A stretch of DNA of 64,000 nucleotides from Roseibacillus sp. GTDB lineage: Bacteria; Verrucomicrobiota; Verrucomicrobiia; Verrucomicrobiales; Akkermansiaceae. Made by a program: the position numbers. The stretch is taken from assembly GCA_051251855.1 (NCBI GenBank), contig JBPOGI010000006.1:96001-160000 (forward strand), in the 5' to 3' direction. Each line of letters starts with the position of its first letter. Position 1 is the stretch's first letter. Positions 27,001 through 33,000 of the stretch are shown piece after piece.

Positions 27001-30000
27001 GACGAGCTGGGGACTGAGAGTGTGCGTGAGGGTGTTTTCAACGAGCGAAATCGCTTTTTCACAAGTGACTCGAAAGCCTTCCACCCATTCGGGTTCGAGC
27101 CCGGACTCGGCCATGGCTGCCGAGATGGCTTTGCCTCCCCCGTGAACGAGAATGGGGTTGATACCGGCGACCTCGAGAAAAAGAATGTCGCGCATGAAGT
27201 CGGAGACCAACTGAGGATCCTCCATCACGGAGCCACCGATTTTGATGAGAAAGGTTTTCCCTCGAAAGCGCTGCAGGTAGGGCAGGGCCTTGATGAGAAC
27301 GGAGGCTTTGGCTTGCGGGTCGGTCACGGCATTGAGGAAAGCAAAGCCAGCGGATGAGTCGAGACTTTGCTGAGGGTTTTATCTACTCGTCCGCGGCTTT
27401 GGCGGCACTACGGATAGCAGCTTTGGCTTTGAGAAGGCGTTCGGGCCACTCGAAGGTGGGAGCGGTGCTGGGATCGTAGCCTTCGAGATGTCCCGTGAGG
27501 CGGGTGGCGGGCTTGGTGTAGACCAGCTCGGTATCGCGAAAGACCTCGCGGCAGAGTTCAGCGAGCGCGGGGTCGTATTCGATGAGTTCTTCTCTCGTGT
27601 TGACGTGATTGTGGTCGTGGTCGTTCTCGCGATTGTTTCCGAACCAAGACTGCACCCCTTCCGCAAAGTATTCGAAGTGATTGGTGGCAGCATACTTGTC
27701 TTTCCAGAGACCGGCCTGCATCGCTGCTTGGTAAGTTGCCTCTAACCGCTGGTCGAAAGTGGGGTCGACATTGAGGAGACCACGCAGATGAATGTTGTGC
27801 GCGAATTCATGGATGAGAATGTTCTCTGCCTCGTAGGGGTCGCCGGGATAGCCGAGGAGGTTTTCTTCTCCGCAGGAGCAGTAGCAATCCGTTCGGCTCC
27901 CACCCAAGCCACGGGCGCGCGCATCCCAAAAGGCTTTTGCGCTTACTCCTGGGTAATGGTCTTTGCCTTGAGCGAGGCGGGCGAATTCGGGGAGATCGGT
28001 CGTGAACTCGTTGTAGGCCATCACGCTCATGCGCGCTCCGCTATCGACCATGGCTTTGGCAATGTCGGGGCGCTTGGCGAGCATCTTGTCGATGAGGTAG
28101 GCTGCTTCTTTCAAGGCATAGGGATTCACTTTCTCGGAAGCGACGATGGGGTAGCCCACGGCTTTGAGCTGTTGTTGATAGAAAGTCGGAACGCCGTCTT
28201 GGCTGGCGGGGTCATAGCGATAGCCCTGCACTGGCACTTTCGAGGTCACATTGATGCGGGTGTCGCTTTCTTGTCCCACCACTTCGAATTCGTGTCCAAG
28301 GGTGGTGGTGATGAGGGTTTCCTTTCCCGGGGCGACGGTGCCATTGGGGACTCGTTTTCCTTCGGGATTGAGCCAGTAGATCGCGATCTCTTCTTCGCTG
28401 GCATTGAGGAATTGCAACTGCGGCCGCGATTTGGTGGGCGACTTTTCTTTCGAAATGCCCATAGCGAGAAGGGCACCTAAAATCATGAGAGGAAAGAAAG
28501 CGAGAGCGCGGCGATGGTTTCTCATGGAGGGGAGGCTACGTGTTCTGGCTCAAAAGTCTCTCGAATACGTTCGCTCGGTCCTCTCGACTGGATGCCCTAC
28601 AATCGGGAGCGTGGTCTTTCTAAGCCGCCACCTGTAGAGGTGGAAGGTTCAGGGTAAGGCCTGGAGACTTTCGGTCAAAAGGCGAGGTTCGGGTAATGGG
28701 GGTTGCGACTCGTTCCACCCTAGCGGCTTACAAAGCCACGCTCCCATCAATCAACCGAGATGCTCTTTGAAAAACGCAATCGTCCGCGTCCAAGCCAACT
28801 CCGCTTGCTCTTTGTCGTAGCGCCCAGTGGAGTCATTGTGGAAACCGTGATTGGCCTCGGGATACATCTGCATTTGGTAATCCGCGCCCGCCGCTTTGAG
28901 GTCTTCCTCATACTCGGGCCAACTGGCATTAACGCGCTTGTCGAGTTCTCCGAGTTGAATAAGTAATGGTCCTTTGATGTTCTTGCGCAGCTCCTTCGCT
29001 GCGGGGGTGCCGTAGAAAGGCACGCCGGCATTGAGTTCTTCGGGAAGGGTGGCTGCCAGCATGTTCACGATGTAGCCGCCAAAGCAAAAGCCGACCGCGC
29101 CCAGCTTTCCGTTGCTGAGCTTGTGCGCCTTGATGAACTTGGCCGCTGCGATGAAGTCTTGCTCCAGCTTGGCTTTATCCATTCCCTTTTGCATCGCGCG
29201 GCCCTCATCATCGTTGCCAGGATAACCACCGGAAGGATGCAGGCCATCAGGAGCGAAGGCGACAAATCCTGCTTTGGCCACGCGGCGGGCGACATCCTTG
29301 ACGTAGGGATTGAGCCCTCGGTTCTCGTGAATCACCAAGACGACATAAGCGGGGCCCTCCAGGTTGGTAGGGACCACCAGATAGCCCTTGCCCTCACCGT
29401 GACCTTGCGGGGAAGGAAAGGTCTCGTAGGTGGCTTTGATTTCGGGGTCATTGAAGCTGACTTGCTCGGCTGCGACATAGTTCGGGGTCAGCGCGGTCAA
29501 GAGTGTGCCCATCGTCAGGGTCGCGGTGGTGATTGTTCCCAAGCGCGCCAAGAAGGTGCGGCGGTCGATGACGCCATGGGCATACTCATCATACCAGTCG
29601 AAGGCTTCTTGCGGGATAGGGTGGGTGGTGGTGGATTCTTGGGATGGGTTCATGAAATGTTTTTGAGTTCCTCTCCTTCTTAGCGCGAAGCTTCCTTGTC
29701 GGAAAGGAATCAGTGTGAGGAATGTTCGTTGTCTCTCTTCAAAACGGAGCAAGGACATTCTTGTCCTTGAAAAGCGAGACTCCAAGTCCTCAGGACTCCT
29801 CGTTGTGAAAATTTTTCGGCCCCGGTGTCAGAACGTCAAGGTCGAGGGGTATGCCTTGGTGAACCTACCTAATTGAACGATGAAAATCAGCACTCTCTCC
29901 AAGTCTCTTGCTCTTGCCGTCCCGCTTGTCGCGGTGGCTCCCGCCCATCTCGATGCCGCCGCCTATATCAAGTTTGATGGCATTATTGGCGAGGTCTCCG

Positions 30001-33000
30001 AAACCGGGTTCGAAGGTTATATCAAGTTCGATGGCTTCAAGATCGAGATTGATGGCACCAAGGCGACCGAGAAATTTGGAATTCCTTCTTTTAGTTTCCA
30101 AATGGAGAAGTCCTCGCCTCGGCTCATGTTGGCCTGTGCCAATGGCCTGACCATTCCCTCTGCGACTATTATCATGACAAGGCCTCACAGCAGTGGTCAG
30201 GAGAAAAGTTACCTCAAATATGAGCTCACCAATGTCAGAGTGCTCACTTACGGAAGCGATCGGAATGAACTGACGGATATCCCGGCAGATTCTTTTAGTC
30301 TCAACTATGAGGAGATTAAGGTCACCTATCAGGTCCTCGACTCTGCGGGCAATCCAATTGAAACCGTGACCACCGGCCCCTTGTTGCGATAGCTAACTAA
30401 GCGAAGAATCCACCATGAATTCACGCACACTTCATAGAGTCCTTCTCATCGGACTCTTGCTCACCTCGGGACTTCCGGGGGCTAGGCTTTATCTCAAGAT
30501 TGAAGGGATTCGGGGAGAGTCGACGCATGCGGCCTACCCCGGTTGGATTGCCGCCGATAGCTTGCAGTTCGCTGGTTCGCTTTTCAACGGAGCCGCTGGA
30601 GGGTTTGGAGTGGTGAAGTCTCCTGACCGTTCCTCGGTGAGGTTGTTGCAAGCCTTAGCCAGTGAGCGTTATCTTCCCCGCGTCACGGTCGCCTTTCTCA
30701 AGCCTGATCCAACCAACAATGCGGGGGAAGATGTCGAGTTTGCGCGCGTTCTTTTCCGTGATGTTCTCGTTCGCTCCTGTGAGCAGGAGACCTTCACTTC
30801 GGGAACAGGGGAGGTGCTCTTGCAGGAAAAATATCGCCTAAGCTTTCGGGCCGTTTTCTATCGCTACCAGTCGGACGCGGGGGAGTCCGAGACCTCCTAT
30901 GTTGATTTGGATTTGGGAGCGGATACGGATGGCGACGGGATGACCGATAACTATGAAGACTTCTTCGGTCTCAACAAAAACCTCGATGATAGCGCGCTCG
31001 ATACCGACGGTGATGGCTTGACCCATCTGGAAGAGTTTCGATTGGGGCTCAATCCTCGTCTCTCGTCGTCTTCCTTCGTGCCCCGGGGTGGGGTGGATCC
31101 GGAAGACGCGGAGAACTTTCAGCTCACTTGGGCGACTAAGCCTGCCAAGTCCTATGACGTTTACTTCACTTCCGATTTGGCGCAGGAACCGGCCTTCCTT
31201 CGCCGAGTGACGGCGAGTGAGATGGATTCTTCGACGAGTTTTCGTCGCCTGCAATCGCGTGGGTTTTTCTCAATTCGAGAAGTGGTGGAGTGATGAAGGA
31301 AGACCTTTTGGCGGATTGGAATCCGGAGAGTTTTCTCCACGACCTCGTTGCGGGTCACTACACGGTTGAGAGTAGTCCGAAGGGTTCGTCCCTCGATACG
31401 GTGACCTTGAAGCCGCGCTCGGTGGTGCATGAACAGTTGCTCCGGCTCTTTCTCGCGGGAGAGGATTGTGCAACTGATCTTGTCAAAGAGGCTTTGCCGA
31501 CCTCGGCGCAGGAACTCATCGCGCTGGGGATTCTGGAAGAAGAGGAGGGGATGATTCGCTCCCAGTTTCGCATCCGTCCTCATCCGGAAGGTTATCTCGC
31601 GGAGGATTTTCCGGCTCGGCTCTATACGTCGGCAACGGACTTTGTGATGGGGGTGGCGCCCACCACGCGCATGACGAGTCGTATTGCACCCGACTGCTCA
31701 CCGGAGACCGTGCTCGACCTCTGTTGTGGGGGCGGGTGGTTGGCTTTGACCCAGGCGCTGGCGGGTCGTTCGGTGACCGCCTGTGACCTCAATCCGCGTG
31801 CCTTACAAGTGGCTGCACTCAATAGTCGACTGCTCCAGGCCCCTGCGGTTTCGTGGCGACAAGGTCCATGGCTGGAACCGGTTGCGGGCGAAACCTTCGA
31901 CCTCATCGTGGCCAACCCTCCTTTTGTGCAAACCCCCGGGAGTTCCTCGGTGGCCCTCGATACTCCGGCCGAAGAAGATACCGCGGCGATTCTTCTTCCG
32001 CAGCTGGCCCATCATCTCAATCCGGGCGGCTATGCCTGCCTCTTGATGGACTGGCAATTCACCTCGCCGGAAGACTGGCAAAGTGCCATTGAGTGTCTTA
32101 TTCCTAGGGAGGGAATTCAGTCTTTGCTCTTTGAGGTGCAACGTCAGTCACCCGAAGATTACGCGCGCCATTGGTTGCGGCAGGACACCCGCTTTCAAGA
32201 GGAAGACGCGCTCGGCCCCGAGTTGCAGCGCTGGCTCGATCACTTTGCCAGTCGAGGAACGGTGGGGATTTCTTCGGGCTTCATTGTGCTGCGCAAGTGT
32301 GAGGTGGGGCAGGAGTTTTCATTCCATGAGTCCCGATCGGTGGCGCACTTTCCGCCTGAGACTTCGGCGGAATTGAGCCGCTTTTTTACGAATCAAGATT
32401 GGTTGCGCGAGCAGACCGGTGACCTATTGGATGAGATTTTCGAAGGAGTGGAGGGAGTGCGTAAACTGGCCGGAAGCGTGCGCGAGTCCACGGGTTGGGT
32501 GACCGAGTCGCTGCAGCTCTCCAGTCCCGCTCGTCTTCTCTACGATGGCAACGTGGACCCTGCGCTCCTTCTAATCTTAGAAACGGCTTCGGTCGGAAAA
32601 CCGGTTAGAAGCGCTCTCCCCGAACTCGCGCGCATCGTGGGTGCCGATGAGGAAGCCCTGGCTCCGCAAGTGACTGATCTGCTGAAGGAGTTGATCACGC
32701 GCACTTTATTGGTGCCTTGTGGCTGATGAATTCTAGGGAGGAAGGAGATTCCCGTTCGTGAAACAAACCGCAGGAGAGGGAAGAGGCTAAACGCTATCGG
32801 AGAGGCGGCCTTTACCTTGGCCTTCGTAGCCTTGGCGAAGGATGCTGCCGCCAGCAACGGTCCAATCAATTGCGATGAAACCCCAAAGCCGCGTGCTGAA
32901 CCTCAGAAGGATAAAGCTCTTCATCCGAAAGTTCACCCGCCTCCGCCCTTCGACATTTAAAATGTTCCGATGCGAGGACTATTGAACTCAAATTCTGACG

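Follow-up and report, generated by a model that had tools for sequence, protein, structure and literature searches.

Within the 64,000-nucleotide stretch of the Roseibacillus sp. contig JBPOGI010000006.1 analyzed here (the window), three adjoining genes lie on the + strand: a short, putatively exported Hcp gene (g03466, 170 aa, 29880..30392), a long one (g03467, 292 aa, 30415..31293), and a methyltransferase gene (g03468, 478 aa, 31290..32726) whose first 4 nt are also the last 4 of the long Hcp gene. The Hcp genes were assigned from their ORFs, PF05638 matches and structure models, searched with Foldseek for the short and VIA-align for the long protein, and g03468 from its ORF and three Pfam domains, DUF7059, an MTS class-I SAM domain and DUF7782. 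The neighbours of the Hcp pair are a dienelactone hydrolase gene, a peptidase-like gene and the methyltransferase, and no linkage to a type VI secretion system (T6SS), VgrG or PAAR gene was seen at the window locus. A six-frame search of the genome (4.96 Mb, 13 contigs, 95.44% complete) found exactly three Hcp matches, namely g03466, g03467 and a copy on contig C1 (T6SS_HCP 2.4e-12, 47.7 bits, residues 49-167, model positions 15-128). The ORFs, with their lengths and the methyltransferase next to them, were found where the survey's finding had placed them; the N-termini quoted for the Hcp proteins were as given there, and the T6SS_HCP E-values of the three genes were reproduced within a small factor.

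Both window Hcps exceed the curated cut-off of PF05638 (23.5 bits) and cover model positions 1-129, the short Hcp with 67.9 bits (1.4e-18, residues 29-150) and the long Hcp with 47.4 bits (2.9e-12, residues 26-151). The Hcp core of the short protein, defined by the Pfam envelope and seen as beta-barrel strands in the model, occupies 29964..30329 (+), and the Hcp domain of the long protein, defined by the Pfam envelope and structural matches, 30490..30867 (+). The AlphaFold model of the short Hcp had an overall pLDDT of 88.7 (51-59 in the signal region versus 93-98 in the core), and its top Foldseek matches were all T6SS Hcps (E ~1e-12, TM to target 0.88-0.90). The long Hcp model (pLDDT 84.9) was aligned by VIA-align to the T6SS Hcps 3v4h, 4hkh, 7fcf and 3eaa at Z 19, with an rmsd of 1.8-2.2 across 129-139 residues, whereas the CIS and phage tail tubes (PVC, AFP, pyocin, T4 gp19), which have the tube-protein fold superfamily in common with it, matched much more weakly (Z 8-10, rmsd 3.4-4.9); unlike CIS and phages, the host genome gave no sheath (PF04984), gp25 or baseplate match in the searches made. 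Judged from profile matches and models, the window pair are true Hcp-fold proteins. They share with T6SS Hcp/TssD (PF05638; PDB 1y12, 3eaa, 4hkh, 3v4h) the family, the fold and the N-terminal motif A-Y-I-K-F-D-G-I-x-G-E, and the edge-strand contacts between neighbouring T6SS Hcp subunits are predicted for the window pair as well.

Unlike T6SS Hcp/TssD, the window Hcps carry a putative Sec-type signal peptide and are encoded in a genome without a detected T6SS. In the short Hcp, residues 1-28 (29880..29963, +) form the predicted signal peptide, which was called from its n/h/c pattern, the upstream stop and conservation and reads MKISTLSK / SLALAVPLVAVAP / AHLDAAA with predicted cleavage before Y. 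It contains two Lys, its hydropathy, taken over 9 residues, peaks at 2.67, and A-A-A stands directly ahead of YIKFDG. An in-frame stop lies two codons 5′ of the ATG at 29880, and the peptide MKI..SKSLALA.PL.A is kept in three relatives via synonymous codon changes, so this region is translated. The h-region of this peptide shows no more than moderate hydrophobicity, includes prolines and has an unusually conserved sequence (LS[KR][ST]LAL..P.VAL), features that could mark an anchor left uncleaved or a targeting signal of a more specialised kind. In the long Hcp the predicted signal peptide spans residues 1-24 (30415..30486, +); called from hydropathy, orthologues and a modelled helix at residues 3-17 preceding the barrel, it reads MNSRTLHR / VLLIGLLLT / SGLPGAR, with two Arg, a hydropathy maximum of 2.96 and a cleavage site less clear than that of the short Hcp; a signal-type segment is found in 23/23 orthologues, its sequence not being conserved. 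On both window Hcps the n/h/c extensions of 24-28 residues conform, heuristically, to type I signal peptides, from which we infer Sec export of the two proteins. A signal peptidase I gene and at least five secretin-family genes are also present in the genome.

The same signals were evaluated across a family sample of 401 genomes, in which Hcp was found in 66 and TssC in 25, using our own hydropathy and start-codon rule plus comparison, a rule whose calibration extends to 13 Hcps of TssC-bearing genomes taken as negatives. In all of these 13 the Hcp core begins no more than 7 residues from the start, and there is no extension: 12 have a Met 2-6 residues ahead of the core and one has no Met in the 7 residues after a stop. 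Twelve lie within about 1 kb of TssC, the TssC of G262 being on another contig. By contrast, among 100 Hcp ORFs not adjoining TssC, 93 were signal-peptide-like by this rule, 5 were borderline and 2 were truncated fragments, in agreement with the survey's claim that signal peptides precede the Hcp core. Signal-peptide Hcps never adjoin TssC in the family sample, a further difference from T6SS Hcp/TssD. In three genomes (G037, G150 and G165) signal-peptide pairs coexist with a T6SS that has its own extension-free Hcp; in G007 a T6SS is accompanied by a single signal-peptide Hcp. As to whether relatives with such genes lack T6SS, which the survey had left aside, 43 of the 66 Hcp-bearing genomes are without TssC; two of them, G057 and G094, are single-contig genomes carrying the gene pair, which addresses the survey's caveat about missing DNA.

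In the host genome, no match at E<=1 was obtained for VipB/TssC (PF05943), Phage_GPD/VgrG (PF05954), VipA/TssB (PF05591), TssF (PF05947), TssK (PF05936), IcmF-related/TssM (PF06761), GPW_gp25/TssE (PF04965) or Phage_sheath_1 (PF04984), these searches covering the families named, rather than TssG, TssA, TssJ and TssL, in a 95.44% complete genome. The claimed lack of a sheath (TssC) or spike (VgrG) gene thus holds and extends to other core families. The best PAAR match in the genome had only 13.5 bits (E 0.375). When 29 ORFs from 40 kb around the T6SS of the relative G055 were compared by tblastn, just 5 had a match in this genome, a ClpB/ClpV-like ATPase and four others, and the 501-aa ORF covering G055's TssC match found nothing.

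Comparison of 40 relatives' Hcp loci, whose flanks are mutually unrelated, revealed a three-gene unit in which the pair is passed on together with a cytoplasmic HemK/MTS-like methyltransferase, an arrangement that T6SS Hcp/TssD does not have. Two HMM-detected Hcp genes lie on one strand at 34 of the 40 loci, and a second Hcp gene was recovered via BLAST clustering at 2 more; the methyltransferase is directly 3′ of the pair at 22 relatives' loci and in the window (23 in all), often with a 4-nt overlap, so that the link noted by the survey is kept. A full-length homologue of the methyltransferase (E<=1e-54) occurs in 25 of the 401 genomes, every one Hcp-bearing, and adjoins the pair in 23. In G007 a homologue lies away from any Hcp. 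The enzyme itself has no signal peptide and matches MTS (2e-11, 44.3 bits versus a cut-off of 23), DUF7782 (9.9e-08, 32.7 versus 27) and DUF7059 (5.5e-06, 26.9 and thus just under the cut-off of 27), an architecture also found in Atlas neighbours at 0.99. Identity with the PrmC/HemK release-factor glutamine methyltransferase was rejected (TIGR03534, 66.5 bits versus a cut-off of 199.1; hemK_fam, 55.9 versus 115.5); g03468 falls under every NCBIfam cut-off and shares with PrmC/HemK only the catalytic core with NPPF. This motif (residues 209-212, 31914..31925, +), which is typical of HemK/MTS-type amino-group methyltransferases, was located by an alignment of 18 orthologues, all of which keep N209 and P211 and nearly all P210. 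Among the points against the explanation proposed below, no Lys, Gln or Asn was found conserved solely in the methyltransferase-linked Hcp subfamily, and the methyltransferase family is often met in Actinomycetota, where no Hcp accompanies it. Salmonella FliB with flagellin and Rickettsia PKMT1/2 with OmpB are reportedly cases in which an exported surface protein has a cytoplasmic methyltransferase dedicated to it; g03468 can be likened to them as a cytoplasmic SAM enzyme with a genetic or functional tie to a protein that, here putatively, ends up outside the cell, but they belong to different enzyme families, and a target can be named for g03468 only by analogy.

Behind its Hcp domain, the long paralogue bears two TSP3-type calcium-binding repeats (residues about 168-214, 30916..31056, +), recognized by invariant residues and TSP3_bac, and a C-terminal beta domain (about 78 residues, 31057..31290, +) that belongs to no named family, delimited by conservation and the model. 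Among 23 orthologues DxDxDG..D..E is invariant twice over (D170, D172, D174, G175, D178 and E181; D196, D198, D200 and E207), which confirms the DxDGDG repeats noted in g03467. TSP3_bac gives a sub-threshold 18 bits on the window protein (cut-off 25); in the 20 long paralogues of relatives that were scanned, it reaches the cut-off in 7 (25.5-32.5 bits) and E<=0.01 in 11. One of the same 20 has Lectin_legB and SdrD_B, two have Big_9 and Cadherin, and no toxin family was found among them. The C-terminal beta domain, modelled with six to seven strands, has S219, F221, W239, Y247, L255 and F284 invariant in the 23 orthologues, and the Atlas clusters closest to it consist of unnamed Verrucomicrobiota proteins. 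TSP3, lectin, cadherin and Ig domains are extracytoplasmic types, and a cell-surface or secreted protein is where legume-lectin, SdrD_B, Big_9 and cadherin domains are typically found; since TSP3 repeats are also known from the periplasmic portions of OmpA-like proteins, they do not settle surface exposure. Such TSP3 repeats, and the lectin, cadherin or Ig domains of relatives, distinguish the long form from T6SS Hcp/TssD. Hcp-ET, reportedly Hcp-toxin fusions of Enterobacteria with C-terminal extension domains, likewise join a functional domain to the C-terminal side of an N-terminal Hcp domain, but their extension is a T6SS-delivered toxin and they have no signal peptide, whereas the long Hcps here have calcium-binding, lectin or adhesion-type extensions after a Sec signal. 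A toxin fusion of the Hcp-ET kind was ruled out, the C-terminal part consisting of TSP3 repeats and the unnamed beta domain. Fusions of an N-terminal HCP1 are mentioned in PMC3482391.

When the Hcp domains of the short and the long protein were co-folded, three copies of each, the ipSAE was 0.67 (0.66-0.68 in three runs) against 0.00 for the best control, with at least 89% of contacts in common among runs and a partner pLDDT of at least 73; in calibration the ipSAE mark is reached by 116 of 157 complexes of solved structure and by 2 of 215 mismatched pairs, counts that apply only roughly here. The predicted contacts pair strand 51-60 of the short Hcp with 119-126 of the long Hcp. The co-fold may pass from likeness to solved Hcp hexamers, and can show likeness rather than binding. 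A mixed ring of the kind that the co-fold suggests is formed by the Bacteroides fragilis T6SS Hcp2-Hcp3 heterohexamer (PDB 9vnd, by entry title), which however is T6SS-dependent, cytoplasmic and effector-loading, and matches the long model only at Z 9.9.

Based on these data, the window pair are most likely, and we think probably, Sec-exported, T6SS-independent Hcps that build ring-shaped scaffolds carrying binding domains; within this explanation, where they reside, how they assemble and what the methyltransferase acts on are what we infer. The TssC-free Hcp genomes, the extensions and the triad support the survey's reading of "likely Sec-exported, T6SS-independent Hcp-like" proteins. Both Hcps would be made with a cleavable N-terminal signal peptide and cross the inner membrane via Sec, and signal peptidase I would cut within a residue or two of A-Y-I-K-F-D-G, which directly follows the start Met in cytoplasmic Hcps. 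Outside the cytoplasm, as fold and co-fold suggest, the barrels would join edge to edge into Hcp-type rings, probably of mixed short and long subunits. The long subunit would display its calcium-binding TSP3 repeats and small beta domain from the ring; relatives would present a cadherin, an Ig or a legume-type lectin domain in their place. What results would be a scaffold for multivalent binding in the envelope or at the cell surface, an adhesin- or lectin-like ring, which is the weakest step. By analogy with FliB and PKMT1/2, the methyltransferase would modify the Hcp precursors before export or act on another partner of the system.

It is barely credible that the pair are ordinary T6SS tube proteins whose T6SS is unassembled or too divergent and whose extensions are start-codon artefacts. 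A genome 95.44% complete in 13 contigs leaves some room for this, and the Hcp cores are full-length, with a mature N-terminus that would match the canonical one; but the eight T6SS and sheath families have no match, the G055 region has no counterpart, and in the single-contig G057 and G094 the pair occurs in the absence of TssC. The coexistence of an extension-free T6SS Hcp with signal-peptide pairs in G037, G150 and G165, the presence of both a T6SS and a lone signal-peptide Hcp in G007, the stop two codons 5′ of the ATG and the conservation of the extension as protein likewise argue against this reading, and we know of no lectin or cadherin domain, as found in relatives, that is cargo of a tube lumen passing unfolded or small proteins.

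Exported rings that stay in the periplasm, where they would form a cage for binding or chaperone-like tasks or act as decoys for Hcp-borne effectors injected by neighbours' T6SS, and would not be surface adhesins, are unlikely. A Sec signal implies export across the inner membrane only, the window proteins gave no sign of an outer-membrane sorting signal, the lumen of T6SS Hcp rings serves as an effector-binding site, and TSP3 is known from OmpA-like periplasmic regions. The legume-lectin, SdrD_B, Big_9 and cadherin domains on relatives' long paralogues, however, point outward, several secretins in the genome could carry folded proteins there, and no immunity-type or envelope-stress neighbour is conserved at related loci. 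Still less probable is a Sec-dependent appendage, an extracellular tube or fibre of stacked rings with a short-Hcp shaft and the long Hcp as tip or decoration. The Hcp fold does polymerise to tubes in T6SS, a plain subunit is conservedly paired with a binding-domain subunit, the two paralogues form parallel subtrees in a quick tree and the co-fold favours short-long contact, but T6SS Hcp tubes need baseplate, VgrG and sheath as template, and no usher-, sortase- or assembly-type gene is conserved beside the pair.

No description of an exported Hcp pair with a methyltransferase was found in the literature searches made. New here are the conserved triad of short Hcp, long Hcp and cytoplasmic HemK-like methyltransferase at 23 loci, the domains of generally extracytoplasmic type on the long paralogue, and the 3+3 co-fold score. 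A marine Verrucomicrobia-type bacterium without a detected T6SS carries two copies of the T6SS tube protein with putative export signals of the ordinary type, and such exported Hcps would point to an undescribed extracytoplasmic job of the Hcp ring.

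The window carries two tandem genes on the + strand that encode a short Hcp of 170 aa (g03466, 29880-30392) and a long Hcp of 292 aa (g03467, 30415-31293), each matching the whole Pfam T6SS_HCP model (1.4e-18 and 2.9e-12, respectively). A third gene in the same orientation encodes a 478-aa class-I SAM methyltransferase (g03468, 31290-32726, + strand) with MTS, DUF7059 and DUF7782 domains in Pfam. The two Hcp genes are separated by a gap of 22 nt, and the long Hcp gene overlaps the methyltransferase gene by 4 nt. Compared with the named methyltransferases PrmC/HemK, g03468 reached 66.5 bits against a cut-off of 199.1, the catalytic core being all they have in common. 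AlphaFold models, based on alignments of 96 and 23 sequences, had pLDDT values of 88.7 and 84.9 for the short and long Hcp, respectively, and the best structural matches of both were T6SS Hcps throughout (Foldseek E ~1e-12, TM to target 0.88-0.90). By VIA, T6SS Hcps were matched with Z 19 and an rmsd of ~2 Å across 129-139 residues, whereas contractile injection system and phage tail tubes reached Z 8-10 only. The window pair are genuine Hcp-family proteins, rather than remote look-alikes of the tube fold.

A terminator and promoter scan around the operon found nothing over shuffle expectation. Thirteen sequencing runs are listed, none on record as RNA, and the runs containing window DNA are labelled seawater metagenome. 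On the 3′ side of the three genes, GC falls to 0.458 (33000-36166) and small ORFs are found; this stretch includes an ORF with a sub-threshold ParE-toxin match (34405-34632, 19.4 bits), an N-terminal fragment of an IS481-type transposase (34827-35249, − strand) and a dehydratase (35273-36166) starting only at position 58 of its Pfam model, and it looks like an insertion scar.

The N-terminus of both window Hcps is first basic over a short stretch, then hydrophobic, then made up of small residues, and the Hcp motif follows with no spacer: MKISTLSK-SLALAVPLVAVAP-AHLDAAA and then YIKFDG in the short Hcp, and MNSRTLHR-VLLIGLLLT-SGLPGAR-LYLKIEG in the long one. A stop lies two codons upstream of the ATG at 29880, with no earlier start in between, and the extension peptide of the short Hcp is kept in three relatives despite synonymous codon changes; the extension is therefore translated. 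The 120 database homologues fall into two forms, one of ~158-161 aa that starts with M-A-[AG]-Y-I-K-F-D-G and an extended one of ~170-220 aa, in which a classical signal peptide with an A-x-A end precedes the Y-I-K-F-D-G motif. Because the predicted signal peptide lies directly ahead of the Hcp motif, its cleavage would restore a normal Hcp N-terminus. This genome encodes signal peptidase I, and its secretin-family genes number at least five. The short paralogue has a signal peptide that is conserved across genera (..LS[KR][ST]LAL..P.VAL...A), with prolines within the h-region (loci L038-L071); both features are unusual for a Sec signal and might point to a specialised targeting step. Lipobox-like ends (LLAGC, LLSCS, VLSCS) were observed in long or single Hcps of relatives (loci L053, L072 and L076), which may be lipoproteins; the window Hcps have no Cys at this position.

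Among the 401 genomes of the family sample (Akkermansiaceae, this genome included), 66 had an Hcp match and 25 a TssC match: 23 genomes carried both, 43 carried Hcp without TssC, among them the single-contig genomes G057 and G094, and two carried TssC alone. None of the 13 N-termini read from Hcps of TssC-bearing genomes had an extension; 12 of these Hcps were encoded within ~1 kb of TssC, the remaining one, from G262, lying on a different contig. A Met stood 2-6 residues before the core in 12 of the 13, and one had no Met in the 7 residues after a stop. By contrast, of the 100 Hcp ORFs away from TssC, 93 were signal-peptide-like, 5 were borderline and 2 were truncated fragments, as judged by a crude rule, namely a 9-residue Kyte-Doolittle mean ≥1.8 and ≥15 residues before the core. 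Neither set includes the row G198:C22 or eleven further T6SS-type rows of genus g3. Extension-bearing Hcps are thus split from the Hcps beside TssC. Three genomes (G037, G150 and G165) have a T6SS with its own plain Hcp alongside signal-peptide pairs, and G007 has a T6SS and one single signal-peptide Hcp, so the two kinds coexist and remain distinct. In a quick Hcp tree of low resolution, with 32 of 85 inner branches open, the exported and T6SS Hcps were not cleanly separated.

The gene arrangement is also conserved. In 34 of the 40 relatives' loci tandem Hcp genes were found by HMM, and in two more the second gene was found by BLAST clustering; the short gene (~180-200 aa) lies upstream and the longer protein is encoded downstream. 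A methyltransferase homologue (29-62% identity, E 1e-53 to 0) follows directly 3′ of the pair in 22 relatives' loci as well as in the window, often with its start overlapping the long-Hcp stop by 4 nt, and no other gene was conserved around this triad in the 40 loci. The nearest named relative of the window triad is a Verrucomicrobiaceae MAG (L078). In a quick, poorly resolved tree the long paralogues grouped to one side and their subtree mirrored that of the short paralogues, which fits an old duplication with the pair inherited together.

Full-length methyltransferase homologues (E≤1e-54) were found in 25 of the 401 genomes, all 25 of which carry Hcp, and in 23 of them the gene adjoins the Hcp pair; the copy of G246 is on a 2-kb contig. 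One full-length homologue in G007 (L157, G007:C22, 5980-8463, − strand) lies apart from any Hcp, with a zinc-ribbon/membrane protein upstream. The methyltransferase family is widespread, occurring in Actinomycetota, Acidobacteriota and Myxococcota, without a link to Hcp there. Of 80 loci, mostly from Actinomycetota, found with the methyltransferase alignment and the general NPP motif as pattern, a single one, from Acidobacteriaceae, has Hcp at a distance of up to 4 kb, and the gene lies there on the opposite strand; clustering of the neighbours at 30 of these loci gave nothing interpretable because ORF calling is unreliable at high GC. In other signal-peptide Hcp lineages, none of the 208 ORFs at 22 loci matched the methyltransferase profile, and Pfam found no methyltransferase among 30 neighbour ORFs. 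For candidate methyl acceptors, the methyltransferase-linked short and long Hcps were compared with T6SS Hcps and with unlinked ones: the conserved columns were generic fold positions alone, and no Lys, Gln or Asn was specific to the subgroup.

The long paralogue carries binding-type domains. Behind the Hcp domain, 23 orthologues have two invariant DxDxDG..D..E motifs, which are Ca sites of the TSP3 type, then a conserved beta domain of ~78 residues, for which the Atlas gave unnamed Verrucomicrobiota clusters only, and a C-terminal end GFYRV. In a Pfam scan of 20 long paralogues, TSP3_bac was found in 11 at E≤0.01, 7 of which reach the cut-off, a legume-lectin domain together with SdrD_B in one, and Big_9 and cadherin domains in two. 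Such domains belong to proteins outside the cytoplasm, most of them at the surface, and independently fit export; the repertoire suggests binding as the function. At the locus of the third Hcp on contig C1 of this genome (L264:6338-8447, − strand), the 197-aa Hcp comes right after a 498-aa ORF that has no match in Pfam. The N-terminus of this ORF resembles a signal peptide, and the ORF has a TSP3-like DLDGDG motif, a DLDGDGLTLLEEF motif and, at the C-terminal side, a region reading ...SSNLTDWDTV.... What g03467 combines in one protein seems to be split there, with the TSP3-plus-tail part encoded by a gene of its own.

Beyond the family, contigs from one genome per species gave 102 Hcp frames at 79 loci: an extension was absent from 58 and present as signal peptide or membrane anchor in 40, with 4 unclear. 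Signal-peptide pairs occurred in Verrucomicrobiaceae, Verrucomicrobiales, Opitutia and Limisphaerales records and in some unclassified bacteria. A further lineage, seen at three Verrucomicrobiota loci (L079, L083 and L084), has single signal-peptide Hcps of 184 aa at ~6001-6490 (MKHNK..ITQINA followed by AAYIKFDG) with conserved neighbours of their own: an RtcR-like sigma-54 activator upstream and, directly downstream in L079 and L083, a ~940-aa protein with TPR repeats and cytochrome c554/MtrC-like regions, whose 985-aa homologue in L084 lies ~3 kb further on. In four Dehalococcoidia/Chloroflexota loci (L087, L091, L094 and L145), a transmembrane-like N-terminal segment and an Ala/Pro/Ser-rich linker of ~20-30 residues precede an AAY/AGF core; this would leave the Hcp domain outside, tethered to the membrane, in lineages not known for T6SS. 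Most Planctomycetota Hcps (L085-L156) begin at MAAYIKFDG without extension. A TssC-like ORF lies within 6 kb at three of these loci only (L122, L132 and L137), and several genomes, e.g. Novipirellula, Stieleria and Rhodopirellula, have two Hcp copies ~8 kb apart.

One rival reading is a T6SS in this genome that was overlooked; the assembly (4.96 Mb) is 95.44% complete. Six-frame searches of the whole assembly gave no match at E≤1 for TssC, VgrG, TssB, TssF, phage sheath, TssK, TssM or gp25/TssE. As a same-family control, the 29 ORFs from the 40 kb that surround the T6SS of a relative, G055, were compared with this genome by tblastn: five matched, one ClpB/ClpV-like ATPase and four others, and the 501-aa ORF over the TssC match of G055 had no match. 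An undetected T6SS is thus very unlikely. For PAAR, a single sub-threshold match (13.5 bits) was taken as noise.

The reading we favour is that the short and long Hcp would be exported through Sec with cleavage of the signal peptide, would form rings together, and would display the C-terminal domains of the long Hcp so that they bind multivalently, at the surface or within the envelope. A 3+3 co-fold of short and long Hcp domains gave an ipSAE of 0.67 (0.66-0.68 in three runs) with at least 89% of contacts in common and a partner pLDDT of at least 73, and the best of three controls gave 0.00; strand 51-60 of the short Hcp met 119-126 of the long Hcp, an edge-to-edge Hcp-ring contact. Of the 157 solved complexes in the tool calibration 116 passed the mark, as did 2 of the 215 mismatches, counts that are only roughly valid here because own alignments and six chains were used. 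The PDB holds Hcp hexamers, including a mixed Hcp2-Hcp3 ring, and the pass may therefore reflect likeness instead of real binding. Two rival readings are less probable: a purely periplasmic role of the pair, which would also be compatible with the signal peptides although the mostly surface-type domains of the long paralogues lean towards display, and rings stacked into an extracellular tube. By analogy with FliB/flagellin and PKMT/OmpB, precedents for a methyltransferase acting on an exported protein, the cytoplasmic methyltransferase might conceivably act on the Hcp precursors.

In its boldest form, which we consider rather improbable, the proposal is that Sec-exported Hcp pairs are subunits of an unrecognised envelope or surface structure of Verrucomicrobiota, a hexameric ring or stacked tube built outside the cytoplasm without a contractile machine, in which the binding domains on the long subunits (TSP3, lectin, cadherin) can be exchanged and whose subunits are modified before export by a dedicated cytoplasmic methyltransferase. 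Hcp is usually described as having no signal peptide and leaving the cell only via the T6SS. Full-text searches, which covered literature outside the subscription journals, found no description of an Hcp with a signal peptide, and PMC3482391 speaks of Hcp1 as a component of the T6SS and as a partner fused N-terminally to toxins. What is new is that, inside a single family, extension-bearing Hcps separate cleanly from those of genomes with TssC, that the triad with the methyltransferase is conserved, and that the long paralogue has its repertoire of domains; to this comes, at the level of a model, a predicted short/long heteromer.

Hcp presence is used for annotating T6SS and for scoring 'virulence factors' in metagenomes. 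In the family sample, 43 of the 66 genomes with Hcp, or about two thirds, have Hcps that are predicted from sequence to be Sec-type and T6SS-independent, in a conserved operon of their own, and such annotations would be wrong for these lineages. The finding raises the question of what role an Hcp ring has in the envelope; the methyltransferase link gives a concrete experimental handle on it, and a natural hexameric display scaffold with lectin or adhesion domains may be on offer. If the proposal is true, the tube protein of the T6SS would have a further role independent of any such secretion system, namely as an adhesin or fibre scaffold.
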